DNA of 52,971 nt, from positions 1 to 52,971 of IMG/VR virus record IMGVR_UViG_3300009678_000010, one strand, 5' to 3'. The DNA is from a virus (lineage: Duplodnaviria > Caudoviricetes). Each line of letters opens with the position of its first letter. The first letter of the stretch is position 1. The translations under genes were made by a program, and so were the position numbers. The notes beneath the pieces are model-generated. The model worked only from the letters and a program-made list of their open reading frames with translations. It was not told where the DNA came from and did no database searches. Shown in pieces: positions 12,247-40,893 of the stretch.

Positions 12247-12253
12247 ACCACCG

Positions 12254-12900: not shown

Positions 12901-12950
12901 GGCGGCTCCTATCGAGTGGCTGTGGACGCGAAACCGATTCGCTGCACTCT

Positions 12951-12999: not shown

Positions 13000-13045
13000 G
13001 CATCGTTTATACTGCCCTTAATAATGTGTTCATGGAGGCGCAGCG

Positions 13046-13515: not shown

Positions 13516-13518
13516 ACC

Positions 13519-13752: not shown

Positions 13753-13955
13753 TGCTGAAAAAGGAAGAGCAGGGCTGGGCCATCGTTGACGCAAAAAGCG
13801 GCGACTTGATGCTATTCGATGGACGTATGCCGATCTACTGGCTCCGCAGAGTGGCTGTAATGGTTGCGAAGGAGCACGGTTTCACGGCGGACGGCAGCGA
13901 CCGAGACGCTCGAATCTGCAAGGTGTCGATTCGTCAGTCGAAGACCACGAAGTAG
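13752..13955 (+). CDS. hypothetical protein
   Basis: TAATG overlap with the upstream gene. Confidence 0.55.
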   Translation: MLKKEEQGWAIVDAKSGDLMLFDGRMPIYWLRRVAVMVAKEHGFTADGSDRDARICKVSIRQSKTTK

Positions 13956-13959
13956 CTGA

Positions 13960-14011
13960 TTTCCGTCATACATCAATCGTTGCGCTAGCGGTTCCGTGTA
14001 GGCTGAGCCGC
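13960..14011 (+). promoter_or_regulatory. putative late promoter, copy 1 (box TTTCCGTCATACATCAATC-N16-CGTGTAGGCTGAGCCGC)
   Basis: Same two boxes with identical spacing at 24060-24111; -10-like TAGGCT 7 nt before the GTG start, no SD. Confidence 0.7.
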
Positions 14012-15979: not shown

Positions 15980-15986
15980 TTTCGTT

Positions 15987-16021
15987 GGGGCGGTTGTCTG
16001 GGAGGCAGCCGCCCCTTTTTT
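15987..16021 (+). terminator. Rho-independent terminator after the capsid gene
   Basis: GGGGCGGTTGTCT/AGGCAGCCGCCCC stem followed by T6. Confidence 0.85.
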
Positions 16022-16225
16022 ATGGCACAGCAACCTCTGACATCTCGCCTCACGTGCCGCAGTTGTGGCGCTCCTGAACGTCATGGCGTCGTGCTGGTCA
16101 GTCACGGCTACGAGTGGCTGTGCGCGCGCTGTTTCCACATGCTTGAACAAGCTGAAAGCTTGGCCACGATGTGGGCCCCTCGACACGATCGCTATCTGCG
16201 CCGCGACCTCAGAGCGACCGAATGA
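16022..16225 (+). CDS. small CxxC-containing hypothetical protein
   Basis: CRSC...CARC; stop overlaps the portal ATG. Confidence 0.5.
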   Translation: MAQQPLTSRLTCRSCGAPERHGVVLVSHGYEWLCARCFHMLEQAESLATMWAPRHDRYLRRDLRATE

Positions 16226-17616: not shown

Positions 17617-17735
17617 CTCGGCTCTTGGCGTGGTTGCACGACCTCGCGGACTTCCTCGGTCTCACCGGTGGTGACGATTGGAATCGTGAGCCAGTGCCAC
17701 GTCCGCAGCGCCGTCGCGCCGGATTCAAGCCATGA
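17613..17735 (+). CDS. 40-aa hypothetical peptide (not in ORF track)
   Basis: MTRLLAWLHDLADFLGLTGGDDWNREPVPRPQRRRAGFKP; ATGA overlaps with portal and collagen-like genes. Confidence 0.55.
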   Translation: MTRLLAWLHDLADFLGLTGGDDWNREPVPRPQRRRAGFKP

Positions 17736-18859
17736 CGCCTGCCGACCTCTCCGCGCTGATGGTCGCGATGGCGCCGGTCATCAGGACGCACACGCAGAAG
17801 CAGATCGCGCTCGCCGTCGCGCCGTATCAGGCACACATCGATTCGCTTGAGCGGCGACTGATGGAGCTCGAAATGTGGGAGCCTCCAGACGTCATCAGCC
17901 CAATCGTGGCGCGTCTGGCGACGCTCGAAGCCCGCGAACCGCGCGACGGCCGCGATGGCTTGTCGATTGTCGGGCCGCGTGGCGATCGAGGCGAGCCCGG
18001 AGAGCGCGGGATGCAGGGCGCCGCCGGCGAGCGCGGGCCAGATGGCCATCCTGGGCCTGCCGGCGCACCAGGAGAGTCCATCGTCGGGCCACAAGGAGAT
18101 CAGGGCCTCGAAGGTCAGCCTGGCGACATCGGCCCAGCAGGGCCAGCAGGCGCGCCCGGCCGCGACGGCATCGACGGCCTGCACGGCAAAGACGGTGCAC
18201 CGGGCTCGTCCGGCCGCGACGGCATCGACGGCAAGAATGGCGAACCAGGGCGCCCGGGACTTGACGGGAAGGCAGGCATCGACGGCAAAGACGGCGCGCC
18301 AGGACTCGTCGGCAAGGATGGCGCGCACGGCCGTGATGGTATCGACGGCAAAGACGGCGCGGCCGGCCGCGACGGCCGAGACGGTGCACCGGGCCTCAAC
18401 GGCAAAGATGGCGCCGCTGGCCTGAACGGCAAAGACGGCAGCAACGGTCTGAACGGCAAGGACGGCAACGATGGCATCCACGGCAAGGACGGGGCACCAG
18501 GACGCGACGGCAAGGACGGCCTCGGCTTCGACGACTTCGGGCTGGAGCATCATCCGGCCAAGGGCTGGCGACTGTTCCTGAAGCAAGGCGACCGCGAGCG
18601 GGAATTCTGGTTGCCGTTGCCGTGGTTTGCCGGGCCGTTCGCCGCGGGCAAGAGTTATCCCGCCGGCGCGATGGTGCAGTATGACGGCCACAGCTGGATG
18701 GCGACGACCGAGACGGCGGAACTGCCGACTGAGGGGCACGACGCATGGCGCATGGTGACGCGCAGAGGCAAGCAAGGCCGCGACGGAAAACCTGGGCCAC
18801 AAGGGCGGCCAGGATTGGATTACACGCAACTTGATCCCAGCACGGGGCGAAAGTTCTAG
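17732..18859 (+). CDS. collagen-like (Gly-X-Y) head-associated protein
   Basis: Long GPxG/GKDG/GRDG triplet tract; C-terminal GKSYPAGAMVQYDGHSW...W.MVTRRG domain. Confidence 0.88.
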   Translation: MTPADLSALMVAMAPVIRTHTQKQIALAVAPYQAHIDSLERRLMELEMWEPPDVISPIVARLATLEAREPRDGRDGLSIVGPRGDRGEPGERGMQGAAGERGPDGHPGPAGAPGESIVGPQGDQGLEGQPGDIGPAGPAGAPGRDGIDGLHGKDGAPGSSGRDGIDGKNGEPGRPGLDGKAGIDGKDGAPGLVGKDGAHGRDGIDGKDGAAGRDGRDGAPGLNGKDGAAGLNGKDGSNGLNGKDGNDGIHGKDGAPGRDGKDGLGFDDFGLEHHPAKGWRLFLKQGDREREFWLPLPWFAGPFAAGKSYPAGAMVQYDGHSWMATTETAELPTEGHDAWRMVTRRGKQGRDGKPGPQGRPGLDYTQLDPSTGRKF

Positions 18860-19452
18860 GTAGTCAATGTGCGTTCGACTGACCAGCCACGCTGAAGGCG
18901 GCGCGTGAGGCAACTCTGATGTTTAAACCCCAGTCTCTTGGCCCAATCTGCCAGGCACAATGTCTCGCCTTGAAATGTTACTCGGTGATTCTTGGAGGTA
19001 TTTCTTCTCTGCTCGGCCCATGTGGCCCAGCGCACGTTTCCAGGCTCATAGTTGCCGTCGTTGTTGATGCGGTCAAGCGAGTAACCATCTGGGCACGGCC
19101 CAACGTCGCTGAAAAACGCCGCATAGTCGCGCCACTGTTCGCAGACGCGAATGCCACGTCCTCCATAGTGACGGTATCGGTCATTTCGGCTGTTTTCGCA
19201 GCGCTGAAACATTTGCTCCCATGCGGCATATTCGCGCGGTTTGCGGCCGTGACGAGTCTGCCCGTGCGTGATTGCCTTCTCAAGGCGCAGACATCCGCAA
19301 CTTTTGCGTCGACCTCTTCTCAAGTCGGAAGTCGAGGCAGTGGTTTCTTGTCCGCATTCACAACGACAACGCCACAGCGTATCGTGTCCGCGCGACACGA
19401 TTTCAATAACAGTCAGTCTTTCAAATGCCTGCCCTGTCAGGTCTAGTGTCAT
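18856..19452 (-). CDS. HNH homing-endonuclease-like protein (paralogous to 11461-12246)
   Basis: DLTGQAFERLTV, CRCECG, KSCGC, YGGRGIRVC, SLDRINNDGNYEPGNVRWAT. Confidence 0.85.
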   Translation of the reverse strand: MTLDLTGQAFERLTVIEIVSRGHDTLWRCRCECGQETTASTSDLRRGRRKSCGCLRLEKAITHGQTRHGRKPREYAAWEQMFQRCENSRNDRYRHYGGRGIRVCEQWRDYAAFFSDVGPCPDGYSLDRINNDGNYEPGNVRWATWAEQRRNTSKNHRVTFQGETLCLADWAKRLGFKHQSCLTRRLQRGWSVERTLTT

Positions 19453-19993: not shown

Positions 19994-20653
19994 ATGCGGA
20001 TTCCTGAAGAGAAAGCGAAACCGCCCGTTGAGCCGGCGCCTCGGCTCTATCCTGACGGGGCCACGGTCGCCATACTCGGCTCTGGGCCATCGCTGACGCA
20101 GGCCGATGTCGATCTGCTCCGCGGCCGCGTCGATGGTGTTGTCGCGGTCAACGATTCGTATCGGCTCTGCCCGTGGGCCACGGTGCTCTACGCCGGCGAT
20201 CGGCACTGGTGGAAGTGGCACAAAGGCGCGCCAGGATTCGCCGGCCGGAAGTTCTCGATCTCCTCGACGGTGTATCCCGATGTGCAGGTCTTGAAGCGTG
20301 GCCCAGAGACGGGCCTGTCGATGTCGCCGGACACGCTGGCGCTCGGGCGCAACTCCGTTTATCAGGCCATGAACTTGGCCGTGCATTTCGGCGCCACCAG
20401 CATCATCCTGCTCGGCGTGGACCTACAGGGCACGCACTTCTTTGGGTTGCATCCTGACGGCTCGAAGCCGCCATTCGACCTCTGCCGGCAACGTTTCGCG
20501 ACATTAGTTCAACCGCTCGCACAACTCGGCATCGAGGTCGTCAACTGTTCGCGTGTGACGACGCTGCGATGCTTCGCTCGCCGCACGTTGGAAGACGTGC
20601 TCGATGTCACGTATGTATCCGATACCGACGCATCCCGTTCCGTCTCAGCTTGA
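19994..20653 (+). CDS. Rossmann-like sugar-transferase-type protein (MptE/DUF115- or GT42-like)
   Basis: VAILGSGPSL, VVAVND, NSVYQAMNLAVHFGATSIILLGVD, VVNCS. Confidence 0.7.
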   Translation: MRIPEEKAKPPVEPAPRLYPDGATVAILGSGPSLTQADVDLLRGRVDGVVAVNDSYRLCPWATVLYAGDRHWWKWHKGAPGFAGRKFSISSTVYPDVQVLKRGPETGLSMSPDTLALGRNSVYQAMNLAVHFGATSIILLGVDLQGTHFFGLHPDGSKPPFDLCRQRFATLVQPLAQLGIEVVNCSRVTTLRCFARRTLEDVLDVTYVSDTDASRSVSA

Positions 20654-26650: not shown

Positions 26651-27079
26651 ATGCCGCGCACACGTTTCGTTATTCCGAGCGTCACGACACTGACGCTGTC
26701 GGATGGCGATTGGATTCAGGTCAAGAACCAACTCACGGTCGGCGAGGAGCGCGCGGCGTTCCAGCAAATCATCGGCGAAATCAATCAGCAGACCGGCTGG
26801 CGCAAACCGAACATCGCGCTGCAGGGCATCGCGGAGATTGCCGCGTATCTGGTCGCGTGGTCGTTCCGTGACCCGGAAGGCAATCCCATTCCGCCGGACG
26901 TGGCGACGATTCAACTGCTCGACGTGGACAGCTACCGCGAGCTCGAGGCCGCCGTTGAGGGGCACATCAGGAAGATGGAAGCGGAACGGGCGGCCGCAAA
27001 AAACGGCTCGACCACAGGGAGCGAATCTACGCGGACTTCGATATCTGTCGCGCCTGTGGATGGACTTACAACGATCTGA
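26651..27079 (+). CDS. tail assembly chaperone (gpG-like)
   Basis: Gene order; LVAWSF..G.PIP..LD; slippery A-AAA-AAC at 26998-27004. Confidence 0.8.
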   Translation: MPRTRFVIPSVTTLTLSDGDWIQVKNQLTVGEERAAFQQIIGEINQQTGWRKPNIALQGIAEIAAYLVAWSFRDPEGNPIPPDVATIQLLDVDSYRELEAAVEGHIRKMEAERAAAKNGSTTGSESTRTSISVAPVDGLTTI

Positions 27080-27159
27080 TGGAGTTGCCCGCGCACCTCT
27101 ATCCAGAACTCATCGAGTGGTTGAATGAACGAGGATCGCAGCGCAATGGATTCGACTGA
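26998..27159 (+). other. programmed -1 frameshift site and gpT-like extension
   Basis: In-frame X-XXY-YYZ heptamer; the -1 frame reads KRLDHRERIYADFDICRACGWTYNDLMELPAHLYPELIEWL...FD* ending at 27159. Confidence 0.8.
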
Positions 27160-27784
27160 ACGGAAACGCGAACGTAATCGGCTGTGGATGGCCGACTATC
27201 GCGAGCGCCATCGCGATGAGATCAATGCGCGGCAACGTGCGTCCTATGCGCAGAATTCAAGCCAGGTATTGAGAAGGCAAAAAGAGCGGAGACAGAGGCA
27301 CGCTGGCACGCTAGCGGATCAGCGCAAGAGACAGCCATCTCGAAGTGCTGAACGGAAGGCCGCCTATTTTCAGAAATACTATTCCCGCCATTCTGAAAAG
27401 AGAAAGGCATCAAGCCGCGCCTATTACGACCGCAACGGCGATACCGTGAGAGCACGACAGGCCGCGCAGCGTGAAGCCAATCGGCAACAGATTACAGCGA
27501 GGGTCAAGGCGCGTTACGACCGAAACCCTGAACCGTGGAAGGCGCGCGCGCGTGATCGCTCTGCTCGAAAACGGGGAGCACGTATCGGTCGCGTGGATTA
27601 CGCAGCGATCCTCAATGCGTTCAATGGCCTCTGCGGAATCTGCCAGAAATCGCTCGACCTGAAGGCTGAGAAATACCATTTCGATCACATCGTGCCGCTC
27701 GCCGCTGGTGGTCCGCACGAGACAAAGAACCTGCAAATTGCGCACGCGCGATGCAATTTGTCGAAGGGCGCGAGGGCCGCGTAG
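27146..27784 (+). CDS. HNH endonuclease with Arg-rich helical repeats
   Basis: CGIC...HFDHIVPLAAGGPHETKNLQIAHARCNLSKG; start at 27146 or 27125. Confidence 0.88.
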   Translation: MDSTERKRERNRLWMADYRERHRDEINARQRASYAQNSSQVLRRQKERRQRHAGTLADQRKRQPSRSAERKAAYFQKYYSRHSEKRKASSRAYYDRNGDTVRARQAAQREANRQQITARVKARYDRNPEPWKARARDRSARKRGARIGRVDYAAILNAFNGLCGICQKSLDLKAEKYHFDHIVPLAAGGPHETKNLQIAHARCNLSKGARAA

Positions 27785-30459
27785 TGGCAATTTCTGCCAC
27801 GTTCAGTGCGGATTTTAGTTCGTTCAACGCCGCCATAGAGCGCGCGGACGTGAAGCTGCGCGGCTTGGATTCGTCGTCGCGGTTCGTCGAGCGGTCGCTC
27901 AATCGGATGACGGATAACTTCTCGGGTCGCAAGTTGATCCAAGAAGCGACGTTGATGGTCAACGCCATCGAGCGCATCGGCGGCACGTCGAAACTGACCG
28001 AGACGGAACTCATCTCGGTCGGCAACAAGGCCGCCGAAGCCGCCGAAAAGATGAAACGGATGGGCGTCGAGGTGCCGCCGAAACTGGAGCAACTTGCGAC
28101 GGCCGCACAGAAGCCGGTCAGCGCGTTCTCGTCACTCACCGGCGTGATGGGCAAGCTCAATCCACTGATGGCCGCGTTCGGCGTCTCGCTGTCGGTCGGC
28201 GCAGTCGTCAGCTACGCCAAAGAGATCGGCGCGTTCGCGGGCGAGATGATCGACTTGTCCGCGCAGACCGGACTCTCGACGACGCGACTGCAGGCGTTCA
28301 ACTACGTCGGCGCAGGCGTCGGGCTGACGGTCGAAGGCATCGCGGCGAGTGCCGACCAACTCTCTCGGCGTCTGGGCGACGGCGATAAGTCGGTGGTCAG
28401 CGCGCTCGACAAGATGGGCCTCAGCATCGACGAGCTCAAGACCAAGGGTCTCGACGAGGTCATGTTCGAGATCGACAAGTCGCTCGTCGGTGTGAATAAC
28501 AAATTCGAGCGCGCGGCCATCCTGAATGACCTCTTCGGCCGCGCGGGCGCGAAGATGGGCCGCTTAATGACCGGCGCCTTAGAGGAAGTGACGGCGGCCG
28601 CTGAGAAGACCGGCGCCATCATGGACGAGGAACTGCTCAAGAAGGCCGACGAATTCGACGACGCCTGGGCGCAGGGCTGGATTCGGTTCCGGGCATTCGC
28701 CGCGGAGTCGATCGGCGCCGTCGCGAAGTTACTCTCCGGTCTGTCGGACCTCGCGACCGGATTCATTCCGGCCGGTGCGTTCGGTGCGCCACCGAAGGCG
28801 ACCACGCCGCGACGCATTGGCGGCTCGACTGGCATCCCCAGTATCGATACCGGGCTCACGCTGAAGATTGCGACAGACCCACTGGCGCCATTGAAGGCCT
28901 TCGTCGCTGCACAGAAGGAAGTCAATAAAGCCCGCGTCGAGGAAATCAAACTCCTCGAACAGACCCGCGAAGGCTTGGCGCTCTGGCTAACGCGCGGACT
29001 GCAAGCACCGCAAGCCATTCGCGGCGAGTTCACGACTGAGAACATCGCCAATCTCGTCTCCAGCAATCTGTCGACGTCGCTCGCGATGTTCGGGCCGCAG
29101 AACATCGGCGGCAGCGCGCAAGGTGGCGGCGGTCTCGGGATGGAGTCCGGCGCGTTAGGCGGCGCAGGCATGACCATCCAGCGGGCGATGCACGATTACT
29201 TCTCGTCGCCTGCCGGTGTCCGCATCTCGCGAGGCATGGGCATGTTGGGCACCGGCGGCACTGGCAGTCTGGTCGCTGGCGCTCTGGAGACGGGCGGCGG
29301 ACTCTTCGACGCCTATCAGGAAATCCTCGGCGCGACCGGGTCAGGCAGCCGCGCGAAGCGTGTCGCTGGAGGCGCGGCGACCGGCGCGAAGATTGGCACC
29401 GCGATTCTGCCGGGCATCGGGACCGCAGTCGGCGCGGTCGCCGGGGCCATCGTCGGCGTCTTCCGCGGCAAGTCCAAAGGCGAGCAACTCAACATCGATC
29501 GCGACACGCTCATCTCTCAAGCCTCAGGCATCAGCGGCGACAAGGGCGCCTCGCAAGCCAAGTTCCGCGAACTGGCGACCGCGGCCGGCGTCGCTAGTTC
29601 CGAGATCGATAAGCTGTTCTCGACGCACAAGCAGCAGGAATTCGAGAAGGGCCTCGACTCCATCACCAAGAAGATGGGCGAGTTCACCTCGGAGCAGGAA
29701 GCCGACGCGGCTCGGCTCGAAGCAGCCATCGAGAAATACGGATTTTCCATCGAGCAGATCGGGCCGAAGTTGCAGCAACAGAAACTCGACGCGCAGGCGA
29801 AGGAACTCATCGAAGATTGGCGCGTGCTCGTCGGCGCAGGCATCGACCTGACCGTCGTCAATGAGCAAATGTCTGCGGCCATCAACGAGTATGTGCAGAC
29901 GGCCGTGCGGCTCGGGACGGAAGTGCCCGCGGCGATGCGCCCGATGCTGCAGAAACTGCTCGAGCAGGGACTGCTCACTGACGAAGCCGGCAACGCGATC
30001 ACCGATCTCGAAGAGGCCGGCATCACGTTCGCGGAGACGATGACCGAAGGGTTCGATCGGGTCGTCGTGAAGCTCGATGAACTGATCGCTAAACTCATCG
30101 CGGCAGGCACGGCCATCGGCGATCTGCCATCAGTGCCAGACGCGAGCGGCTATCTGCCTGGCGACCAGACTCAGACAGGCATCTGGGATCCGACCCGCGG
30201 CGGCACGCGGATGCCGGAACTGCAGGAGTTCGCCACTGGCACGGGCGGGCGGTATCTCAGTTTCGGCCGCGGAACGCCGGTGATGTTGCACGGCAACGAG
30301 CGCGTGATGACGGAATCCGAGGGCCGCGCGGAGGGCTCGGCGTGGTCGATGCTCGGCGACAAGCTCGACACGCTCAACGGCAACATTCAGATGATGTTCG
30401 AAGGCGTGCGCCGGGCTGCACGCGATGACATGGCGATCTCGATCGGACGAAGGGTGTAG
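27784..30459 (+). CDS. tape measure protein
   Basis: About 890-aa Ala/Gly-rich helical protein after the chaperone; C-terminal FATG..GTPVMLHGNERV. Confidence 0.92.
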   Translation: MAISATFSADFSSFNAAIERADVKLRGLDSSSRFVERSLNRMTDNFSGRKLIQEATLMVNAIERIGGTSKLTETELISVGNKAAEAAEKMKRMGVEVPPKLEQLATAAQKPVSAFSSLTGVMGKLNPLMAAFGVSLSVGAVVSYAKEIGAFAGEMIDLSAQTGLSTTRLQAFNYVGAGVGLTVEGIAASADQLSRRLGDGDKSVVSALDKMGLSIDELKTKGLDEVMFEIDKSLVGVNNKFERAAILNDLFGRAGAKMGRLMTGALEEVTAAAEKTGAIMDEELLKKADEFDDAWAQGWIRFRAFAAESIGAVAKLLSGLSDLATGFIPAGAFGAPPKATTPRRIGGSTGIPSIDTGLTLKIATDPLAPLKAFVAAQKEVNKARVEEIKLLEQTREGLALWLTRGLQAPQAIRGEFTTENIANLVSSNLSTSLAMFGPQNIGGSAQGGGGLGMESGALGGAGMTIQRAMHDYFSSPAGVRISRGMGMLGTGGTGSLVAGALETGGGLFDAYQEILGATGSGSRAKRVAGGAATGAKIGTAILPGIGTAVGAVAGAIVGVFRGKSKGEQLNIDRDTLISQASGISGDKGASQAKFRELATAAGVASSEIDKLFSTHKQQEFEKGLDSITKKMGEFTSEQEADAARLEAAIEKYGFSIEQIGPKLQQQKLDAQAKELIEDWRVLVGAGIDLTVVNEQMSAAINEYVQTAVRLGTEVPAAMRPMLQKLLEQGLLTDEAGNAITDLEEAGITFAETMTEGFDRVVVKLDELIAKLIAAGTAIGDLPSVPDASGYLPGDQTQTGIWDPTRGGTRMPELQEFATGTGGRYLSFGRGTPVMLHGNERVMTESEGRAEGSAWSMLGDKLDTLNGNIQMMFEGVRRAARDDMAISIGRRV

Positions 30460-30462
30460 TCG

Positions 30463-30996
30463 ATGGCTGATAACGTCACGCTTCCCGGCACCGGCACACT
30501 CGTCGCGACCGATGAAATCACGTATTCAGGCGATACCGCAGAAGTTCAACTTTTCCGGCTTGTTCACATCTCCGGAGCCGAAGGTGCGAAGACACTGACG
30601 GAACTCGTCACGGCCGCAGGCAGTCCGGCTGCTGTCGCGCTCACGGTGCACAACCCGACGACGCTCTATCACGCCATCATGCTAGCGGCGACCACGAACG
30701 CCGTTCGAATTAAAAGCGGGGCCACGGCATTGAAAAGTATTCACGCGAGCAGCGTTCGGGACAGTTCGTATTTCATCAAGATCCACGACAGCAATACGAA
30801 TCCGCCCGTAGCTGGTTCGACGGCAGTCGCGTTCCCGATACAGGTGCAAGCCGGTCAACCACGAGACATTGTGTTTGCTGATGGTGGGCTTCCTCTCGCA
30901 AGCGGATTCGGCGTGACGATTGTGACTGAACTCGAAGACACCGGTTCAACGGCGGTCGCAGCCGGTGACGGCTCAGTGGTGTTTGGCTATGTCTAA
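30463..30996 (+). CDS. putative virion protein with C-terminal beta-sandwich
   Basis: MADNV..ATDE N-terminus; IKSG..LKSI..FIKIHD..GLPLASG. Confidence 0.65.
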   Translation: MADNVTLPGTGTLVATDEITYSGDTAEVQLFRLVHISGAEGAKTLTELVTAAGSPAAVALTVHNPTTLYHAIMLAATTNAVRIKSGATALKSIHASSVRDSSYFIKIHDSNTNPPVAGSTAVAFPIQVQAGQPRDIVFADGGLPLASGFGVTIVTELEDTGSTAVAAGDGSVVFGYV

Positions 30997-31456
30997 GAAC
31001 CAAGCTATCAGGATACTCATCGGCGCAGTCGTCGGCACAGTCATCGGCCTGCTCATTACGGCGTCCGCCCAGCAGCCGGTAACAGTCGCGAACACGGCCG
31101 TCGACCCGTGCGCTGACCCGGCGAAGGTGATCACGGTCGGCGTGTTCACGGGCTCGGCCATGCAGCGCGACGAACTCGTGGCCGTCGATGGCACCGAACG
31201 CATTTACCTGTGTAGCGCCTGGCTGGTCGGCAGCGCGACCGGTGACTTCTCGCTCTACTTCGGGACCGGCACGACCTGTCAGACCGGCGAAGACTTGCTC
31301 CACAAAGAGACGTTCACGGCCGATCTCCTGCCGGCCGAATTCGTCTCCGGAGGCATCTCCGCGACGGCCGCGCGCAGCGATACGGCGCACGCCTTCTGCA
31401 TGGAACGGCACTCGGCCATGACCATCTCCGGACACTACCGTTACGTGCAGGAATGA
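30989..31456 (+). CDS. signal-peptide-bearing 4-Cys protein, paralog A
   Basis: MSKNQAIRILIGAVVGTVIGLLITASA|QQ; DPCADP, YLCSA, TC, FC; ends GHYRYVQE. Confidence 0.8.
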   Translation: MSKNQAIRILIGAVVGTVIGLLITASAQQPVTVANTAVDPCADPAKVITVGVFTGSAMQRDELVAVDGTERIYLCSAWLVGSATGDFSLYFGTGTTCQTGEDLLHKETFTADLLPAEFVSGGISATAARSDTAHAFCMERHSAMTISGHYRYVQE

Positions 31457-31457
31457 C

Positions 31458-31907
31458 ATGAGATTCCTACTCGCGGCCATCCTGATTGCGTTGCTCACGC
31501 TGCTCGTCGCAGCCACATCGGCACAGCAGCGCGTCAACGTCGTAAATATCGGGTATGACCCGTGCGCCGACCCTAATCGCGTGACGGTCCTCGGGCTCGA
31601 CCAGGCCGACGCCGCCGACTCATTCGAGCTCGTGCCGGTCTCCGGGGTCACGCGCATCTATCTGTGCAGCGCGTCGCTGCAGGGCGGGGTCGCGACGCAT
31701 CTCTATGTGCACTTCGGGTCCGGGGCGGCCTGTGCCTCGACGCAGGCGTTCGTCAGCTACGTCTCGACGGCTGGACTGACGCCGAAGCGTCTGCACACCG
31801 GCGGAGGATCGGCGACGTTCGCGCGCAGTGAGACCAGCCGGGCGCTCTGCATCTATCGGCTGGTCTCGACGACCGTGAAGGGGCACGTGCGCTATGTCCA
31901 GGAGTAG
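31458..31907 (+). CDS. signal-peptide-bearing 4-Cys protein, paralog B
   Basis: MRFLLAAILIALLTLLVAATSA|QQ; DPCADP, YLCSA, AC, LC; ends GHVRYVQE. Confidence 0.8.
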   Translation: MRFLLAAILIALLTLLVAATSAQQRVNVVNIGYDPCADPNRVTVLGLDQADAADSFELVPVSGVTRIYLCSASLQGGVATHLYVHFGSGAACASTQAFVSYVSTAGLTPKRLHTGGGSATFARSETSRALCIYRLVSTTVKGHVRYVQE

Positions 31908-33489
31908 CCTGCTCTTCGTCCTGTGCCTGCTGTTCGCTGCGCCAGCGGCTGCGCAGAACGTCCGTCGCGTCACGTCCACCATTCCGCCACCGTCGGGCGC
32001 CGGCGCGGTCGTCACGGTAATCGCCGGACAGAGCATCGCCAGCGCGATCACGGCGGCCGGTGCCGGCGGCGTCATCCTGCTGAAGGCCGGGACGCATCGG
32101 GTCACGAGCGCGCTGACACCGCTGAACAATCAGGTCTTCATCGGCGAGAAGGACAGTGACGGCACGCGGCGATCGCGGCTGAACGGCTCGCGCATCCTGA
32201 CCGGCTGGATCGCCGACTCGGGCCGCTGGTATGTCACCGGCCAGACGCAGGCCGGGACGCTGGGCGTCGACATGGATTGCGACGACGGCACGCCGGAGCA
32301 TCCGATCGCGGCCGGGCGCTTCGACCGCTGCGTCAACCCTGAGCAGTTGTATTTCAACTGCAGCACGGTCGCGACCTGCACGATGAAGCACCATGAGACG
32401 AGCCTGGCTGCCACCGGCGCCGGCGAGTGGTTCTTCGACTACGCGGCCGATCGCATCTATGTCGGCGACGACCCGACGAGCGCCTTCGTCGAGACGGCGG
32501 TCACGCAACTGCCGTTCACCGGATCGGCGAGTGGTGTCACCGTCCGCGGCCTCGTCGTCGAGATGTTCGCCTCCGTCAGCCAGGACGGAACCATCTACGC
32601 GAAAGACAACTGGCTGGTCGACGACAACGAGATCCGCTGGAACCACGGCGCCGGCATCCGCATGTCGACGCTGGTCGGCGCCAGGGTCCGCAACAACTAC
32701 ATCCACCATAACTGCAACTACGCCATCACCGGCGAAGGGCTCAACCTCGTCGTTGATGGCAATGAATTCGCCTACAACAACGTCCTGCCGCAGTCGAATG
32801 ATTGGGAGACCGCGCCATGCGGGTTCTGGTCGTTCTGGGGCGCGGGCGGGACCAAATTCGTCCACACGCTCGATCTGTTAGTGCGTGACAACTATTCGCA
32901 CCACAACAACGGGCCGGGCGTGTGGTTCGACATCGAGAACCGGCGCGGCATCATCAGAAATAACGTTCTCGAGTCCAACCGTCGCGCCGGCATCTTCTGG
33001 GAAATTTCCTGCTCGGCGGCCATTCACAACAACTGGGCGATCGGCAACGGGACCGGGCTCGACTTCCCGGGCATCGGGACCGGAGCCGGCATCGAAATCA
33101 ACACGTCGGCCGACGTCCTGGTCTACGACAACGTGATCACCGGCAACGCCTACGGCATCACCGGGACCGACGACATCAGGAACGGCGGCAACGAAGCGGG
33201 CGGCCAGTGCCAGCTTGATGGCGTCGTGTGGAAACTCGCGAACCTCTACGTCCACGACAACATCATCACCTCGTGCGGATCCTCGGCTGGCGTCTACTGG
33301 ACCGGCGTCACGGACAGCGGGCACGGCACCGACGCTTTTTCAGGCGCGCAGAATAACGACTTCGAAGACAACGTCTACACGCTCGGCGCCGGGACCAACT
33401 ATTTCAACTGGGCGTCCGGCAACATCGCGACGGCCGCGTGGACGGCGCTCGGGCACGATGACTCAGGCTCGTTTGGCAGTTGTCCGTGA
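31894..33489 (+). CDS. right-handed beta-helix (pectin-lyase-like) protein with signal peptide
   Basis: MSRSSLLFVLCLLFAAPAAA|QN; ILLKAGTHR; repeated DNEIRWNHGAGI, NNYIHHN, HHNNGPGVWFD, ESNRRAGIFWEIS. Confidence 0.85.
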   Translation: MSRSSLLFVLCLLFAAPAAAQNVRRVTSTIPPPSGAGAVVTVIAGQSIASAITAAGAGGVILLKAGTHRVTSALTPLNNQVFIGEKDSDGTRRSRLNGSRILTGWIADSGRWYVTGQTQAGTLGVDMDCDDGTPEHPIAAGRFDRCVNPEQLYFNCSTVATCTMKHHETSLAATGAGEWFFDYAADRIYVGDDPTSAFVETAVTQLPFTGSASGVTVRGLVVEMFASVSQDGTIYAKDNWLVDDNEIRWNHGAGIRMSTLVGARVRNNYIHHNCNYAITGEGLNLVVDGNEFAYNNVLPQSNDWETAPCGFWSFWGAGGTKFVHTLDLLVRDNYSHHNNGPGVWFDIENRRGIIRNNVLESNRRAGIFWEISCSAAIHNNWAIGNGTGLDFPGIGTGAGIEINTSADVLVYDNVITGNAYGITGTDDIRNGGNEAGGQCQLDGVVWKLANLYVHDNIITSCGSSAGVYWTGVTDSGHGTDAFSGAQNNDFEDNVYTLGAGTNYFNWASGNIATAAWTALGHDDSGSFGSCP

Positions 33490-35951
33490 CACTCCTTCTT
33501 CTCATGATCCTGCTCTTTGGCGGCGACGGCACCGGGCTCGCGACAGGACTCCTCACCGAGCACGTCCGAGTCGATGACATCGGCCAGGGGCAAACCCAGA
33601 TCATCGGCGCTATTCGGGTCAGTGATTTCCTGTTCGTTGAACGCACCGTTGCTGGTGCGACCGAGATATCGCAGACAGAGCACGTCCGCGTGCGCGACAC
33701 GCTCTCGGTCGGACGCGTCGATCCGGTGGTGCTTACCGGCGTCACGGTCGGCATTCAGATGGGCTTCCACGCCTCGAGTTACCGGGACACGCTCATCAAC
33801 GAGTCGTTCTGCGTGGCCGTCTGGCCGCTCGCCGACATTAACGGGACGACATTCCGCGACATCGTCGGCGGCCACCACGCCACGCTCAACGGCACCGGGC
33901 TCGTCACTGGCGTCCCGTTCGCGCTGCCAGAGGGCGGCATGGGCGTCACGGCCAATGGGAACCAGTTCATCTCGGTGCCAGATGACAGCGCGGCGAATGC
34001 GAATCTCAACCTGAGTCTCGCGAACGGCGACATCAATCAGTCGATTCTGATCAAGACGACGCACAACAGCGCGACGCTGCGCTGCATCATGTGCAAACAG
34101 GTCACGGACTCCAGCGGCAACGGCTGGTATCTCGGCCATCAGAGCGGCGCGGTCGTCTGGTATCTCGAGGTCGCCGGGTCGACGATCTTCAACTTCTCGC
34201 GCGGGTTCGTGTCGGACGGGCTCGAGCATCTGATTACGCCTGTCTACGACACTGCGGCCGGCGAGGCGTGGATTGAGATCGACGGCGTGCAGTCCGGCGC
34301 GAAAGTCACCGGCCTCGGCACTGAGCCGGCGGTCACGAACGCGACGATGCGGTTCTTCATGTTCCAGGACGGCGTCGCCGGTGACGGCAGCGGTTTCATC
34401 GGGTCGGCTTGCTACGCCATGCTCGGCCGCGAGGGCGACGACCAGCTCGGGGCCCGTCTGGACCCCTGCCGCGATTGGACCGATATCTCTCGGGACGTGC
34501 GCTCGGTCGTGCCGCTGGTCATCAGCTACGGCATCCAGGGCAGTCGCCCGGTCGACCATTGCGCGCACACGGGCACCTGCACGTTCGGGCTCGACAATTC
34601 CGCGCACAACAGCGCCGGGACGCTCGGCTACTACTCGCTCGACCATCCCGACAAGCGGACGAGTTTCCGCAAAGGCGCGCCGTTCCGGGTCGTCTTCACG
34701 TTCGAAGGCATCTCCTACTACAAGCACGTCGGCCGCATGGTGTCGGCGCTGTCGGCACCTGGTCAGAACCTTGAGCGCATCACGCGGGTCACGTCGGCCG
34801 ACTGGATGGATGTGGCGGCGAGCTCGCGGTTGCGCCTGCCCGCGCAGACCGGCATCGACTCCGATGCCGTCATGGGCCTCATCATCGACGAGGCGCTCAG
34901 GCCGCCACACGCGGTCGATATCAGCCCTGGCGCGGAGACGTTCGATTACGCCTTACACATGGGCATCGGCGGCCGCGAGTCGATCATGAGCGAGGCCGCC
35001 CGCTGCTGCGAGAGTGAGTTCGGCGTCTTCTACGTCAAAGGCGATCAATCGCAGGGTGGTGTCGTGACCTTCGAAGGCCGACCGAATCGCCAGATCGACA
35101 TGACGGCCTTGGCGACGTTCACGAACAGCATGGCCGGGCTGACACCGAACGAAACGCAGAAGCCGAATCTGATGCTCATCACTGTGCATCCGGCCGTCGT
35201 CGGTGACACGCCCGAAGTGCTGTTCGCGATGACGGCTCGGCAGCCGATACCGCCGGGCGAAGCGGTGCAGATCCTGGTCGACTACCGCGACCCGGACAAT
35301 GCAGCCATCGCCATCGCCGGAGACGACATCATTACGCCCGTCGTCGTCACCGACTATACGATGACAGCGGCCGAGGACGGTTTAGGCGTGAACCTGAATG
35401 CCTTCGCCACCATCGACGAAACCGGCGCCGAGCTCGGTGGAACCAACGCGGTCCTGACGGTCACGAACTCCTCCGGCCAGGTCGGCTGGTTCACGACGCA
35501 AATTCGCGGCACGGCCATCCGACACGAGGATCCGGTCACGATTCCGGTCGGGGAAGATGCCGTCATCCGTGCCGATGGACCGACCGAAGAGACGATGAAC
35601 CTGGCGTATAACGGCTCGCGAGAGTTTGCGCAGTCGCTGGGCGAGCACATCCTGGCGCTCTACGAAGCCGGTCGCGTCTCGGCGATTTCCTTCATCGCGA
35701 ACACGAGCGCGGAACTGATGACGCAGGCGCTGGCGCGCGAACCTGGCGACCGCATCGAGATTCTTGAGACGATGCAATCGGGCAACGTGGCGCACGCCTA
35801 CGTCATCAATCACGTCGAGCTCGAAGTGACGGCCGGCAACATCATCCGGTGCACGTGGACGCTCGGCCCTGTCGCGGACATCGGCGCGGTCTGGTTGCTG
35901 GGCGTGGCCGGGTCATCGGAGATGGGAGAAACTACGGTGTTAGGACTGTGA
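33480..35951 (+). CDS. large tail protein: N-terminal EHVRV repeats, LamG-like domain, tail hub-like C-terminus
   Basis: VAVWPLAD..DIVGGHHAT, WIEIDG; WTDISRDVR; ESEFGVFYV..G.VTFEGR; REPGDRIEI; start at 33480 or 33486. Confidence 0.8.
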   Translation: MSVTLLLLMILLFGGDGTGLATGLLTEHVRVDDIGQGQTQIIGAIRVSDFLFVERTVAGATEISQTEHVRVRDTLSVGRVDPVVLTGVTVGIQMGFHASSYRDTLINESFCVAVWPLADINGTTFRDIVGGHHATLNGTGLVTGVPFALPEGGMGVTANGNQFISVPDDSAANANLNLSLANGDINQSILIKTTHNSATLRCIMCKQVTDSSGNGWYLGHQSGAVVWYLEVAGSTIFNFSRGFVSDGLEHLITPVYDTAAGEAWIEIDGVQSGAKVTGLGTEPAVTNATMRFFMFQDGVAGDGSGFIGSACYAMLGREGDDQLGARLDPCRDWTDISRDVRSVVPLVISYGIQGSRPVDHCAHTGTCTFGLDNSAHNSAGTLGYYSLDHPDKRTSFRKGAPFRVVFTFEGISYYKHVGRMVSALSAPGQNLERITRVTSADWMDVAASSRLRLPAQTGIDSDAVMGLIIDEALRPPHAVDISPGAETFDYALHMGIGGRESIMSEAARCCESEFGVFYVKGDQSQGGVVTFEGRPNRQIDMTALATFTNSMAGLTPNETQKPNLMLITVHPAVVGDTPEVLFAMTARQPIPPGEAVQILVDYRDPDNAAIAIAGDDIITPVVVTDYTMTAAEDGLGVNLNAFATIDETGAELGGTNAVLTVTNSSGQVGWFTTQIRGTAIRHEDPVTIPVGEDAVIRADGPTEETMNLAYNGSREFAQSLGEHILALYEAGRVSAISFIANTSAELMTQALAREPGDRIEILETMQSGNVAHAYVINHVELEVTAGNIIRCTWTLGPVADIGAVWLLGVAGSSEMGETTVLGL

Positions 35952-36358
35952 TTCGCACCGCTCTCCGGATGATTGGCGTGACATCGCTGGCGCACTACCG
36001 TTCGATGGTTGAGGCCGCCGCGCGCGCCGAAGGTATGCGCGTGGTGACCGACAGTCGGACCCTGCGTCCTCGCGTCGAGGAGGGCCGATGGCTTGTGCCA
36101 TGTCCGAACTGCGGGGCCGGAATTGCTATTGAGCCGAACTGGCCTGAGGCCGGGTGTTTCGACGTGGACGCTGAGTGCTTCCGGTGGTTTCCGAACATTG
36201 AAATGCCAGCGGAGCGCGCCACCATCGAGGCGCTGTTGAATCGACGAATCAGCCGGGCTAACAGGAACTGGCTGCCAGGCGAACCAGTTGCCGCGCTCCG
36301 CGACGAGAACGACCGCAACCCTGATGCCGTGCGCGGCGAACGCGAGGCCGAGAGATGA
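35948..36358 (+). CDS. hypothetical tail-region protein (CPNC motif)
   Basis: GRWLVPCPNCG..NRNWLPGE; overlaps both neighbours. Confidence 0.65.
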   Translation: MIRTALRMIGVTSLAHYRSMVEAAARAEGMRVVTDSRTLRPRVEEGRWLVPCPNCGAGIAIEPNWPEAGCFDVDAECFRWFPNIEMPAERATIEALLNRRISRANRNWLPGEPVAALRDENDRNPDAVRGEREAER

Positions 36359-36891
36359 CGTGGACGACACCGCGCACGTGGGTGACAGCGGAACTGATTA
36401 CCGCGTCGATCATGAACACGCACGTCCGCGACAACCTGCTCCATCTGCGCGGCTACGGCGAGCACTCCTGCGTCGCCTTTCACAATGCCACGCAGAACGT
36501 CACCGCAGGCAACACGGACGCGCTCAACCTCAATAGCGAGGACTACGACACCAGCACGATGCACGACACCGTGACGGCCAACAACCAGATCACGGTGCCG
36601 GTCACCGGAAAATATATCTGCGTCGGCTCCAGCTTCGCCGCCAACAACAACAATGGCGGCTGCGAATTGCAACTGCGCGTGAATGGGACGGCTGTTCGAC
36701 GCTCACAGGCGACATCGGAGTCGGCGGACTTCGGCGATAGAACCCTGCACGTCTTCGGCTACTTGTCCTTGACGGCTGGCGACGACGTCGACCTCGCTGG
36801 ACTCGCCGGAGCCAACGACGTCGCGTTCGGGAGTGCCACGGCGGCAATGGCGACGCGGCTCGAGGTCGTCGGGCCGTTCCCGAATCCGTAG
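36355..36891 (+). CDS. minor tail/fibre protein with C1q-like domain
   Basis: MTWTTPRTWVTAELITASIMNTHVRDN; ITVPVTGKY; LTAGDDV. Confidence 0.75.
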   Translation: MTWTTPRTWVTAELITASIMNTHVRDNLLHLRGYGEHSCVAFHNATQNVTAGNTDALNLNSEDYDTSTMHDTVTANNQITVPVTGKYICVGSSFAANNNNGGCELQLRVNGTAVRRSQATSESADFGDRTLHVFGYLSLTAGDDVDLAGLAGANDVAFGSATAAMATRLEVVGPFPNP

Positions 36892-36900
36892 GGAGATTGA

Positions 36901-37380
36901 ATGACATTCGATGTGGCGTGTGACCGGCTGCTCGGGCATGAGGGCGGCTATGTAAACGATCCGAACGATCCAGGCGGCGAAACGAACTGGGGCATCTCGA
37001 AACGGTCCTATCCAGACGTCGACATCAAAGCCCTGACGCGCGCCGGTGCGAAGGATATCTATCGCCGCGACTTCTGGGACCGACTGAAGGCTGACACGCT
37101 GCACGATGGCGTCGCCTTTCAACTGTTCGACTTCGCCGTGAACAGTGGTATTGAGACGGCTGTCCGTTACCTGCAGCGCGCGGTCGGTGTGGCCGATGAT
37201 GGGCACTGGGGGCCGGCGAGTGCAGCAGCGGCAGCGGCGACATCAGAAACCGACACCATCATGAAGCTGGCCGCGGAACGTCTGGACTTCATGACACGGC
37301 TCAAGAACTGGCCAGCGCACGGCAAAGGCTGGGCGCGTCGTATCGCCGCGAATCTGCGCTACGGGGCCGAAGATTCCTAA
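36901..37380 (+). CDS. endolysin, glycoside hydrolase family 108
   Basis: HEGGYVNDPNDPGGETNWGI, LFDFAVNSG, LQRAVGVADDG.WGP, GKGWARR. Confidence 0.93.
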   Translation: MTFDVACDRLLGHEGGYVNDPNDPGGETNWGISKRSYPDVDIKALTRAGAKDIYRRDFWDRLKADTLHDGVAFQLFDFAVNSGIETAVRYLQRAVGVADDGHWGPASAAAAAATSETDTIMKLAAERLDFMTRLKNWPAHGKGWARRIAANLRYGAEDS

Positions 37381-37425
37381 AAAGAGTGTGCAAAGGGCGA
37401 TATTATCCGTGCAACAAACCAGTAA

Positions 37426-37944
37426 ATGAGTGTGCATGCCATGCCAGCGATCGCGCCATACGGCGACTACACTGACGAGGCTATGCCTCCGAAGGTGAGC
37501 GTCGCCGCGGTGATGGGCCGCGTCGAGCGACTGGAGGAGCAGCGGGACGAGGCGTCCGCTCGCCTGAGGGTCGAGCTCGACGAACTGCGCAAGCAGTTTG
37601 CCGCGGTCGTCGCGCGGCCGATGGAGGTCGACAACATCCGATTCCCGCCGCGCATGGTCGCCGCGATCGTGGCCTCGGCGATCACGGTGTTCGGCGGCAT
37701 GTATGCCTCGACCTATGGCCTGCGCTCGGACGTGCGCGACATCCTGACGACACTAGCGAATCAGGAGCGCATCAAGGTCGAGCAGCAGAAACTCGTCGAC
37801 GAGAAGCAACGGCTCGCGGACGAACGCTTTCAATCGTTGCGCGATGCCGTCGGCGTGATCGACAAGCGCCAGCAGTTGCAGCAAATAGAAACGCAGGAAC
37901 TCAAGGAAATGGTTCTGCAAACCAGGAGTCGGACAAATGAGTGA
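37426..37944 (+). CDS. single-TM coiled-coil protein (lysis module, holin-like candidate)
   Basis: TM MVAAIVASAITVFGGMYA followed by coiled coil; start uncertain. Confidence 0.6.
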   Translation: MSVHAMPAIAPYGDYTDEAMPPKVSVAAVMGRVERLEEQRDEASARLRVELDELRKQFAAVVARPMEVDNIRFPPRMVAAIVASAITVFGGMYASTYGLRSDVRDILTTLANQERIKVEQQKLVDEKQRLADERFQSLRDAVGVIDKRQQLQQIETQELKEMVLQTRSRTNE

Positions 37945-38188
37945 CGAGATGGTCATCGAAGGCGCCGAGTGTTGCATTTTGGAAATCTGCTGCGGCAGCG
38001 AAGCGCAGGACAAGTCGCTGTCGGAGAAGATCGAAGCCGGCACGACGCTCAACAAACATCAGGCTTACGAGGCCGCCGAATGGATTCTCGATCACTACGA
38101 CTTGGCGCCGCACGGGTCGCTCGTGCAATTCAAGCGCACGATCGCCAAGCTCGCGCGGACGTATCCAGGGATGCCGGGCTACGAATAG
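37937..38188 (+). CDS. hypothetical protein (CC..CC)
   Basis: AGGAG RBS; overlaps the upstream stop. Confidence 0.6.
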   Translation: MSDEMVIEGAECCILEICCGSEAQDKSLSEKIEAGTTLNKHQAYEAAEWILDHYDLAPHGSLVQFKRTIAKLARTYPGMPGYE

Positions 38189-38197
38189 AGGTGACTG

Positions 38198-38524
38198 GTG
38201 GGTGAACTCGACGCGGGCACGATGAGCGACAAGGCGAGCCCGTGGTGGGTCAAGGCGGGCGTGCAATTCGGAGTGCCGACCCTGCTCTGCGTCGGTCTGG
38301 TCTATTGGATCGTCGGCGATGCCGATCGCAAGCACAACGCGATGCTGGCGGATAGTGTCTTCATTCGCCAGGAAATCACGGCGATGGGCGGGACGATGAA
38401 CGCGCACATTGATTCCACCGGCCACGCGAACGCGGCGATTCTCTACTATCTGCAGCAACTGTGCATTCAAGGGGCGTCCAACGCGGGCACGCCGGCGAAG
38501 GATTGCACCTACAAGGGGCCGTGA
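38198..38524 (+). CDS. single-TM protein with two C-terminal Cys (lysis-associated candidate)
   Basis: QFGVPTLLCVGLVYWIVG TM; LC...DC. Confidence 0.6.
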   Translation: MGELDAGTMSDKASPWWVKAGVQFGVPTLLCVGLVYWIVGDADRKHNAMLADSVFIRQEITAMGGTMNAHIDSTGHANAAILYYLQQLCIQGASNAGTPAKDCTYKGP

Positions 38525-38760
38525 ATGTGGTTGATTGGTGGGCTGTTTGTGGCGGCGATGATCTGCGGGGCTGCTTTGGCCTGGAGCGCGAAACGGCAGA
38601 AGTGATGGGCAATTTCGCTGAGGCCTTGGCGGCCGAAGTGGAGCGGCTCCGGAAGGTGCTCGAGCGCATCCGCGATGTGCCAGGCGCGGACATCGAACGC
38701 GCGAAACTCCTCGCGCGGCAGGCGCTCGAGCAGACCTCAGACCACGAGGCTAGGCCGTGA
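38521..38760 (+). CDS. hypothetical protein
   Basis: GTGA overlap; last rightward gene before the convergence point. Confidence 0.5.
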   Translation: MNVVDWWAVCGGDDLRGCFGLERETAEVMGNFAEALAAEVERLRKVLERIRDVPGADIERAKLLARQALEQTSDHEARP

Positions 38761-40335: not shown

Positions 40336-40893
40336 CTAGTCCTCTGCCGGGCACGGCTCAGGCACGATTGACAGCGACGCGACCTCGTCGCACTCTGACG
40401 GCTCCTCGGGCTTCACCGGCGGCACCTCTTCGATGTCCGGCATCGCGCTCTCGCCGACGTTCTTGATGACCTCCACCGACCACAGACTGCCCGGGCAGTT
40501 GCCGCGCAGCCGGAAGTGATAGATGCCGCGCAGAAGATAGCGCACCGGCTGCTGGCCGTTCTCGCGCGCGTCCATGCCGCTGAACGTCGCCGGCAGCATC
40601 GTATTGACTTCACGCTTGCGCGTCTCCAACACGTAGCTGTTCGTTGCGCCCGTGCGCCGGAAGTCGAACAGGACCGGATAGAGGCCGGAGGCCGTCGGGT
40701 TCTCGACGTTGATCCTAATCTGCGTCGGCGCGTCGCCCGGGCAACTGTTCGGCGTCAGCGGCGGCATGTCAACGATGGAGCTCGTGGTGCCGCCGGTGGC
40801 CAGGTCGCTCGGGCCTGCCGGGTTGCCGTTGCCGCACGCGATGGTGAACGCCGCGAGTGCCGCGGCCAGTAGGGGGAATGTCATTCTCGTCAT
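40336..40893 (-). CDS. putative lipoprotein with FN3-like beta domain
   Basis: Signal MTRMTFPLLAAALAAFTIA-C; GIYHFRLRGNC..WS. Confidence 0.7.
   Translation of the reverse strand: MTRMTFPLLAAALAAFTIACGNGNPAGPSDLATGGTTSSIVDMPPLTPNSCPGDAPTQIRINVENPTASGLYPVLFDFRRTGATNSYVLETRKREVNTMLPATFSGMDARENGQQPVRYLLRGIYHFRLRGNCPGSLWSVEVIKNVGESAMPDIEEVPPVKPEEPSECDEVASLSIVPEPCPAED

Follow-up and report, generated by a model that had tools for sequence, protein, structure and literature searches.

A transferable four-gene cassette in the tail operon of a tailed phage may encode exported, disulfide-bonded accessory proteins acting on envelope glycan

Background

Isolated cases of phage proteins carrying export signals are known, e.g. 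secreted and signal-arrest-release (SAR) lysins, spanins, exclusion lipoproteins and the morons of phage lambda. Here we report on four adjacent genes (30463-33489, + strand) of the Caudoviricetes genome IMGVR_UViG_3300009678_000010 from IMG/VR, a record of 52,971 bp that was analysed over its full length and is hereafter called the window. Located between the gene of the tape measure protein (TMP) and that of a large tail protein, they code in this order for a protein without a signal (p177), two paralogs (parA and parB) and a beta-helix protein, the last three starting with signal peptide-like sequences.

Llp of T5 and Cor of phi80 and N15, both encoded beside receptor-binding genes, belong together with Spackle of T4 to the receptor-masking or superinfection-exclusion proteins that phages export and that function in the envelope, as the window set would. 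Llp and Cor are single small lipoproteins, in contrast to the three proteins of the window, which include an enzyme-like beta-helix and carry no lipobox; neither they nor Spackle, described as periplasmic (PMC7677548), show homology to the set, whose expression is apparently late and not early.

In layout, the set recalls Cellulophaga phage phi10:1 (L104, KC821618), where gp091-gp095 (11848-18879) lie distally in a siphovirus tail module and gp091-gp094 display consecutive Sec-type signals with Gln at +1. These four carry the label 'structural protein, experimental MS/MS proteomics', an annotation in the record derived from tandem mass spectrometry (MS/MS), and are followed by gp095, a pectate lyase (beta-helix) whose N-terminus is also hydrophobic, and further on by a GH108 lysin. 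However, the phi10:1 proteins are unrelated in sequence to the par and p177 profiles, contain 0-2 Cys and lack a signal-less partner of the p177 kind, and their host belongs to the Bacteroidota, for which Gln at +1 is described as the rule among signal peptidase I substrates (PMC5837995).

Other likenesses are structural. XepA and YomS (6i56, 6i5o), described as Bacillus prophage jelly-roll proteins encoded between tail-fibre and lysis genes (PMC6834076), are best or near-best fold neighbours of p177 (Z 8.4) and parB (Z 7.6 and 7.4), but XepA has no signal peptide, comes from a Gram-positive host and is of unsettled function, the Z-scores lie in the range of a common fold, and no Pfam match to the XepA family (PF27453) was obtained at E<=0.01. 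The subunits of the Ena endospore appendages (7a02, 8pdz) are likewise small jelly-rolls with an N-terminal extension and functional Cys (Z 8.6 with parB, 7.9 with p177); they differ in showing no sequence relation, in an rmsd (root-mean-square deviation) of 4.8-5.6 A and in belonging to Bacillus spore biology, and p177 is devoid of Cys. Finally, a signal peptide followed by a right-handed beta-helix is also the build of CASH/NosD-type proteins and of Pantoea WceF, described as a bacterial tailspike-like enzyme that modifies exopolysaccharide (PMC7949094), whereas the window protein is phage-encoded within a tail operon and has no sequence match in the PDB.

Against this background, the new elements are a large protein family with a signal peptide and four Cys as its hallmarks, a gene layout that recurs in unrelated late operons, and, in one case, a cassette observed in transit between the tail module of a siphovirus and a Mu-like baseplate. 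We read the exported products as late-expressed, Sec-exported, disulfide-bonded accessory proteins that would act on envelope glycan without being integral tail parts, a reading to which we give about an even chance.

Results and discussion

Layout and edges of the four-gene unit

Directly 3' of the TMP gene (27751-30459, + strand; 902 aa, 0 Cys, PHROG tape-measure families at 4e-11 to 6e-6), the + strand of the window encodes p177 (30463-30996), parA (30989-31456; 155 aa from the ATG), parB (31458-31907; 149 aa) and the beta-helix protein (31894-33489; 531 aa), all junctions being 3-nt gaps or overlaps. The large tail gene downstream (33726-35951, + strand; its start is approximate, with GTG codons at residues 83-84 of the open reading frame, ORF) codes for a protein without any match in Pfam, PHROGs or NCBIfam or among PDB sequences. 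The original prediction, made from the sequence of the window, had reported three consecutive genes with Sec-like signals between TMP and tail genes; their presence was confirmed, and the unit does follow TMP, with the correction that its first gene is the signal-less p177 and that the signal-bearing ones are genes two to four.

A scan of 27000-38600 for sigma-70 consensus promoters and for terminators yielded one promoter-like site, inside the beta-helix gene, and five terminator-like sites, none of them flanking the unit and their number not above shuffled expectation. Because the genes overlap and no flanking promoter or terminator signal rises above chance, the sequence points to late co-expression with the tail genes.

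At the 5' edge, a conserved leader of about 30 nt (30430-30459, + strand) immediately precedes the p177 start. It coincides with the last 10 TMP codons of the window and reads as a 9-codon mini-ORF (MAISIGRRV and a stop codon 3 nt before the p177 ATG). Three-way DNA alignment recovered it in two further contigs harbouring cassette genes, L004 (about 995-1024) and L005 (about 7095-7124), with the stop 3-4 nt before the p177 ATG and the consensus MAI[SA][IM]G[RQ][RG]V-stop, the first codon being ATA in L004; within these three sequences only, the differences fall mostly on third codon positions. The leader is fused in frame to TMP in the window and free-standing in L005.

At the 3' edge, the original prediction had noted that the next gene, from 33480, also starts with a hydrophobic stretch. 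The hydrophobic start holds, as the ORF from the TTG at 33480 begins MSVTLLLLMILLFGG, but it is not signal peptide-like, having neither a basic n-region nor an A-x-A end. The stretch 33480-33725 (+ strand), which is rich in Gly (MSVTLLLLMILLFGGDGTG...), shares the reading frame of the large tail gene and is coding-like in its G+C content at the three codon positions (.71/.41/.73). In the relative L003, described below, the homologous alignment starts only at residue 92, leaving the 246 nt without counterpart, and in L004 a similar hydrophobic Gly-rich peptide follows the beta-helix stop, in frame with gp46. This stretch may either form the cassette's 3' edge or extend the tail protein at its N-terminus. 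Within the unit, p177 has a codon-usage history different from that of the other genes, as reflected by its G+C content at third codon positions (0.60 vs 0.81-0.87 in TMP, parA, parB, beta-helix and tail genes).

parA and parB represent a large family

parA and parB share 58 of 130 residues (45%, E 1e-34, BLASTP), have four Cys in the same columns (C41, C75, C97 and C137 in parA) and both end in RYVQE, so that the paralogy originally proposed for them stands. When a profile built from both paralogs was run against 1.84 billion cluster representatives, it retrieved 457 proteins at E<=1e-3 (representatives at 50% clustering), 23 of them at <=1e-10 and 5 at <=1e-30. In most matches the domain, of about 115 aa, occupies the extreme C-terminus of proteins of up to 1,227 aa. 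An alignment of 35 family sequences showed three of the four Cys to be invariant and the fourth present in at least 90% of the rows, with the C-terminal YVQ[EQ] also kept.

This domain appears to define a large family for which no Pfam, NCBIfam or PHROG model was found. Neither parA nor parB matched any of the three collections; 38 of 40 family members had no match in Pfam, the two others hitting unrelated families below threshold or through a zero-stretch, and 14 of 15 had none in NCBIfam, the remaining one, a long member, matching an unrelated ectoine-synthase model far below its cutoff. The combination of a signal, a variable part and a conserved C-terminal beta-sandwich merely resembles the architecture of type IX secretion system C-terminal sorting domains, whose model (Por_Secre_tail / TIGR04183) was matched by neither protein. 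Among PDB sequences, the par and p177 profiles had no meaningful match. No description of the family, nor of Sec-exported tail fibres, was found in the literature searched.

The AlphaFold2 model of parB (pLDDT, the predicted local distance difference test score, of 88.7) consists of a helix at 2-18 followed by a jelly-roll beta-sandwich. Besides Ena1B (7a02), XepA and YomS, with the scores given above, its structural matches were STIV A223 (4ind_A, Z 9.0), the KHP40 cement protein (Z 7.9), PirA (Z 7.7) and carbohydrate-binding modules (CBMs, Z about 7).

Among viruses, scanning IMG/VR for the family pattern yielded 193 matches, among them 103 contigs that encode a relative, and 80 loci were kept. 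Word-index protein search with parB returned only the window's own protein, and among cultured phages no match was found by blastn with the region or by tblastn with parB and p177; tblastn with a more central family member (P0018) matched two Synechococcus phages, for which the literature search returned nothing. One of them, the temperate Yong-M4-211 (L102, OM868079), encodes within 5866-8653 a signal-bearing family member of 138 aa followed by a signal-bearing protein of 786 aa, upstream of an L-alanyl-D-glutamate peptidase endolysin. A scan of metagenome contigs recovered only the L004 contig; in genome contigs, a single marginal match of 22 residues in a Thermotogae metagenome-assembled genome was not used.

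Signal-like N-termini are kept together with cysteines

The N-termini of parA, parB and the beta-helix protein display the n/h/c architecture, with a short basic n-region, an uncharged h-region of 12-17 residues and an end of the A-x-A↓Q type. They read MSKNQAIR, ILIGAVVGTVIGLLIT, ASA↓QQ in parA (predicted cleavage after residue 27), MR, FLLAAILIALLTLLVAA, TSA↓QQ in parB (after residue 22) and MSRS, SLLFVLCLLFAA, PAAA↓QN in the beta-helix protein (after residue 20). Read in this way, all three show the basic n-region, the hydrophobic h-region and the small residues at -3 and -1 of type I Sec signals, and in none does a Cys follow the h-region, as a lipobox with Cys at +1 would require. Our signal calls, made with a crude heuristic of the von Heijne type, were positive for the three proteins and for their orthologs; indeed, the orthologs in L004 and L005 retain signal-like N-termini. 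Between the window and L004, identity in the signal region and in the mature part amounts respectively to 10/27 and 79% for parA, 6/23 and 64% for parB, and 13/24 and 68% for the beta-helix protein, the faster divergence of the former being what would be expected of a peptide that is removed.

The same trend was observed across the parA/parB family. Among the ORFs found by a hidden Markov model (HMM) in the 80 IMG/VR loci, 77 of 87 have a signal-like start upstream of the domain. After removal of 7 duplicate loci and of L001 and L002, which are re-cuts of the window, 80 members remained, 73 of them signal-like and 61 signal-like with a possible Gln at +1. The corresponding figures for 847 other called ORFs of at least 100 aa were 174 and 78 when all starts were scanned, and 107 and 58 when only the first start was considered, these control ORFs being our own greedy, crude calls in high-GC DNA. 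Several of the signal-negative family members are, by eye, truncated ORFs or have lipoprotein-like starts. Gln at +1 may be a family trait; besides the Bacteroidota rule cited above, a Gln at this position is on record for P. gingivalis phage proteins (PMC10367356). As to Cys, the content of the three proteins (2.1-2.7%) is not exceptional for this genome, and the notable feature is the conservation of Cys positions.

Export, cleavage before Gln and disulfide formation are very likely, to judge from the sequences, because the signals are kept in their physico-chemical character while diverging in sequence, because Cys are conserved only in the signal-bearing proteins, and because the pattern repeats across a large family. 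The export and disulfides of the original prediction are in this way well supported, if indirectly. As to whether homologs keep both signal and position, which the original prediction proposed to check, the signals are kept in L004, in L005 and in 73 of the 80 family members; the location behind TMP is kept in L005 and, as described below, not in L004.

The same segments might alternatively act as uncleaved signal anchors that keep the proteins attached to the periplasmic face of the inner membrane, for lysis or envelope disruption in the manner of i-spanins or SAR endolysins; at lysis, the beta-helix would break down a polymer spanning the periplasm. In parA and parB the h-region is rather long (16-17 residues), a GH108 endolysin gene lies only about 3.4 kb downstream (36901-37380), and the fold neighbours XepA and YomS are described as proteins of prophage lytic cassettes (PMC6834076). 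We nevertheless consider this improbable, given that an A-x-A↓Q site right after the h-region is kept in the orthologs and in 61 of 80 family members, that the h-region of the beta-helix protein spans only about 12 residues, and that the signal region diverges much faster than the adjoining mature N-terminus.

The cassette is absent from a relative and present in a Mu-like baseplate

A search with the large tail protein identified a single relative, L003 (one of nine pattern matches was confirmed), within the complete 64-kb record G001. In L003, TMP (5781-7967) is followed 3 nt later by a 758-aa ortholog of the tail protein (40% identity with that of the window over 759 columns, E 1e-161, BLASTP), and no par or p177 family member was found anywhere in the 64 kb of G001. 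In L005, a similar TMP is followed by p177 and by the signal-bearing start of parA, where the contig ends. L004, for its part, contains all four genes in the same order between a Mu Gp45-like gene and GP46, Baseplate_J and Gp48 genes. The L004 cassette is bracketed by a direct repeat of 134 nt (99% identical, at 757-890 and 4160-4293), which duplicates the 5' end of the GP46 gene and leaves a truncated copy upstream (786-1037).

By these comparisons, the four genes form a transferable cassette inserted between TMP and the large tail gene. Relatives of parA and parB are scattered: in the 139 of 244 listed neighbours that were scanned with Pfam, they were found next to portal, MuF, terminase, tail, GH108 and M15 lysin genes, and also next to glycan-related genes (Wzy_C-like, GT2, NosD with fn3, BNR, K1-lyase_C). 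This scattered placement fits accessory genes and not a fixed virion part. A complete relative whose orthologous tail gene adjoins TMP lacks the cassette, a Mu-like myovirus baseplate contains it, and the placement of the family varies in late operons; for these reasons the cassette proteins are not integral parts of the siphovirus tail.

Extra DNA between genes that are adjacent in relatives, as in the comparison with L003/G001, is also what characterizes a moron, and a moron of lysogenic conversion, expressed from its own promoter in the prophage and altering the surface of the lysogen like Lom and Bor of lambda or O-antigen-modifying genes, could be envisaged all the more as Wzy_C-like and GT2 genes adjoin some family members and as the cultured carrier Yong-M4-211 has an integrase. 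Such a role is very improbable here, however: in the sigma-70 scan no promoter or terminator above chance flanks the genes, whose junctions are all 3-nt gaps or overlaps, scanning of 58 window ORFs revealed neither an integrase nor a repressor, and the record, which is complete, has direct terminal repeats.

p177 and the recurrence of the layout

p177 has no hydrophobic start, no Cys and a conserved MADN start, with orthologs in L004 (49% identity) and L005 (70%). Its family comprises 526 matches, of which 119 of the 120 listed are without a hydrophobic N-terminus; Cys counts range from 0 to 4 (median 1) and no Cys is found among the conserved alignment columns. In the AlphaFold2 model (pLDDT 80.9), the first 60 or so residues are poorly modelled and a confident jelly-roll spans 65-177, best matched by the N-domain of XepA (6i56_D, Z 8.4, rmsd 2.9, 94 aligned residues) and then by the same set of structures as parB. 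The Atlas returned only viral hypothetical clusters for p177, with weak leads to XepA (score 0.77; 11% of one cluster) and PRD1-P5. By their models, p177 and parA/parB belong to the same fold class; we do not claim homology, which hhalign did not detect (probabilities of 0.5% and 0.3%), a local match of 17 residues between p177 and par in L004 (E 5e-4, in a single comparison) being a hint only.

Thirteen further viral loci encode p177 relatives, none of them with a par-type domain. In L090, L091 and L094 (L095-L097 being repeats of the latter), the gene directly behind a signal-less p177 codes for a signal-bearing p177-like paralog (E 1e-13 to 1e-18), after which come other proteins with signals and Cys, reaching 746 aa with 17 Cys (L094 5980-9400, L090 5797-8215, L091 1025-4014). 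The set is located between portal and prohead protease in L090 and L094. A looser version occurs in L100 (2121-4572), where a signal-bearing p177-like protein precedes two signal-bearing proteins and the signal-less p177-like gene lies about 4 kb downstream. Unrelated late operons thus repeatedly combine a signal-less jelly-roll with one or more exported jelly-rolls behind it and a large exported protein.

The beta-helix protein

The third signal-bearing protein was correctly recognized at the outset as a Cys-bearing beta-helix. It matches Pfam Beta_helix (PF13229) with 61.5 bits (9.9e-17, cutoff 25.9), as does its L004 ortholog with 57.6 bits, and contains 11 Cys, four of which (C129, C146, C274 and C309) are invariant among 9 aligned homologs. 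Pfam NosD was matched over repeats 317-426 only (2.5e-11, 43.9 bits), and the score against the NosD equivalog of NCBIfam (TIGR04247) was 26.2 bits, to be compared with a cutoff of 300. Among the 82 homologs at E<=1e-5, many are found on long cellular contigs, several carry NPCBM, CBM6, CBM35, Big_2 or He_PIG domains, and 32 passed a strict signal test, more of them looking truncated. The signal-less, particle-binding N-terminal domain of a virion-attached tailspike depolymerase is missing from the window protein, in which the signal-like segment directly precedes the conserved mature QNVRR and no adaptor-domain family was matched. On these domain and signal matches, it is probably a secreted glycan-active enzyme.

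Accessories acting on the envelope or virion parts

In the reading that we favour, the region 30430-33725 would be an accessory cassette transcribed and translated with the late tail operon. p177 would remain in the cytoplasm, whereas parA, parB and the beta-helix protein, bearing cleavable type I Sec signals, would be exported to the periplasm late in infection, where signal removal would leave an N-terminal Gln and disulfides would stabilise all three. The beta-helix protein would cleave or modify an envelope polysaccharide and the jelly-rolls of parA and parB would serve as lectin-like binders or maskers, so that a surface receptor would be destroyed or masked, or the progeny freed from envelope or debris. 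None of these proteins would be built into the tail in the cytoplasm, nor would the tail depend on them. Gene order, paralogy, the conservation of signals and Cys, the mobility of the cassette and the size of the family are shown by the sequences, whereas export, cleavage, disulfides and, above all, the glycan-directed function are what we infer here. Action on glycan is favoured because of the enzyme family of the beta-helix protein, the CBM-like fold neighbours and the glycan-gene neighbours of some relatives, and because the cassette is independent of any one virion architecture.

The original prediction had left the choice between this and joining of the virion at or after lysis, of which action on the host envelope fits the data better. 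If the proteins did join the virion, parA, parB and the beta-helix protein would, after export and oxidative folding in the periplasm, bind to completed particles once lysis brings the two compartments together, serving as disulfide-hardened fibre knobs and a tailspike-like glycanase, p177 perhaps being a docking piece assembled in the cytoplasm. The genes are, after all, embedded in a structural operon and translationally coupled to it, longer family members are fibre-like with the domain as a C-terminal knob, and the p177 domain terminates proteins of 598-667 aa, one of which matches a 'virion structural protein' PHROG, and is also found downstream of a collagen-like fibre gene. The signals, Gln at +1, MS/MS annotation and ensuing pectate lyase of phi10:1 gp091-gp094 speak in the same direction and indicate that virion preparations can contain signal-bearing proteins, but detection in a virion preparation by mass spectrometry does not prove attachment and these proteins are not homologous to those of the window. 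Post-lysis attachment seems unlikely to us, though less so than the other alternatives, since a complete relative with the same tail protein has no cassette, and since the siphovirus, myovirus and head-module contexts, combined with a highly conserved p177 N-terminus, are hard to fit with lineage-specific docking.

Several points nevertheless weigh against glycan-acting accessories. In a diderm, Sec export reaches the periplasm only, and access to surface glycan before lysis is not accounted for; the scheme also leaves the role of p177 unexplained. The phi10:1 proteins, signal-bearing and annotated as structural, favour virion parts, as do the several long family members in which the domain caps fibre-like repeats. 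Furthermore, the jelly-roll matches of the models are middling (Z 7-9), may reflect a common strand arrangement and are uninformative on function, the analysis identified neither a substrate nor catalytic residues of the beta-helix protein, for which the PDB sequence search gave no match, and the family-wide signal excess is measured against the crude control ORFs mentioned above.

Should glycan destruction or masking be right, it would constitute a new and apparently common way in which phages manage receptors late in infection. Joining of the virion after lysis would instead call for an exception to the rule of wholly cytoplasmic assembly of tailed-phage particles, and the cassette would then be a portable 'periplasmic arming kit', through which phages borrow secreted, disulfide-dependent enzymes and lectins of host type as virion hardware. 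In either case, the family offers testable targets in the cultured carrier Yong-M4-211 and, by analogy, in the cultured phi10:1.

Genomic setting

Gene identities in the window, assigned by PHROG and Pfam scans, include TerL (605-2320), a protease-major head fusion (14012-15979), portal (16171-17616), a neck protein, a major tail protein and an HNH endonuclease. The order of the head module is unusual, the protease-major head fusion lying upstream of portal (14012-17616) and TerL about 12 kb away. The HNH / endonuclease VII gene (27125-27784) stands directly before TMP and overlaps its annotated start by 34 nt. The nearest cultured relatives of the portal protein are from proteobacterial phages (44-50% identity) and the G+C content of the genome is about 62%, for which reason a Bacteroidota host, as the Gln +1 rule might suggest, was not adopted.

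Glycan- and fibre-related genes are found in other parts of the window. A collagen-like fibre protein is encoded immediately downstream of portal (17732-18859, + strand), and a relative of the PHROG 'alpha-2,3-sialyltransferase' between portal and tail genes (19994-20653, + strand). A protein with a rhamnosyl O-methyltransferase/CmcI domain (9379-10599, - strand) contains 18 Cys. Finally, an ORF of 185 aa without Pfam match (40336-40893, - strand), with 5 Cys and a lipobox-like N-terminus (MTRMTFPLLAAALAAFTIAC↓GNG), may code for a phage lipoprotein of the early or replication region.

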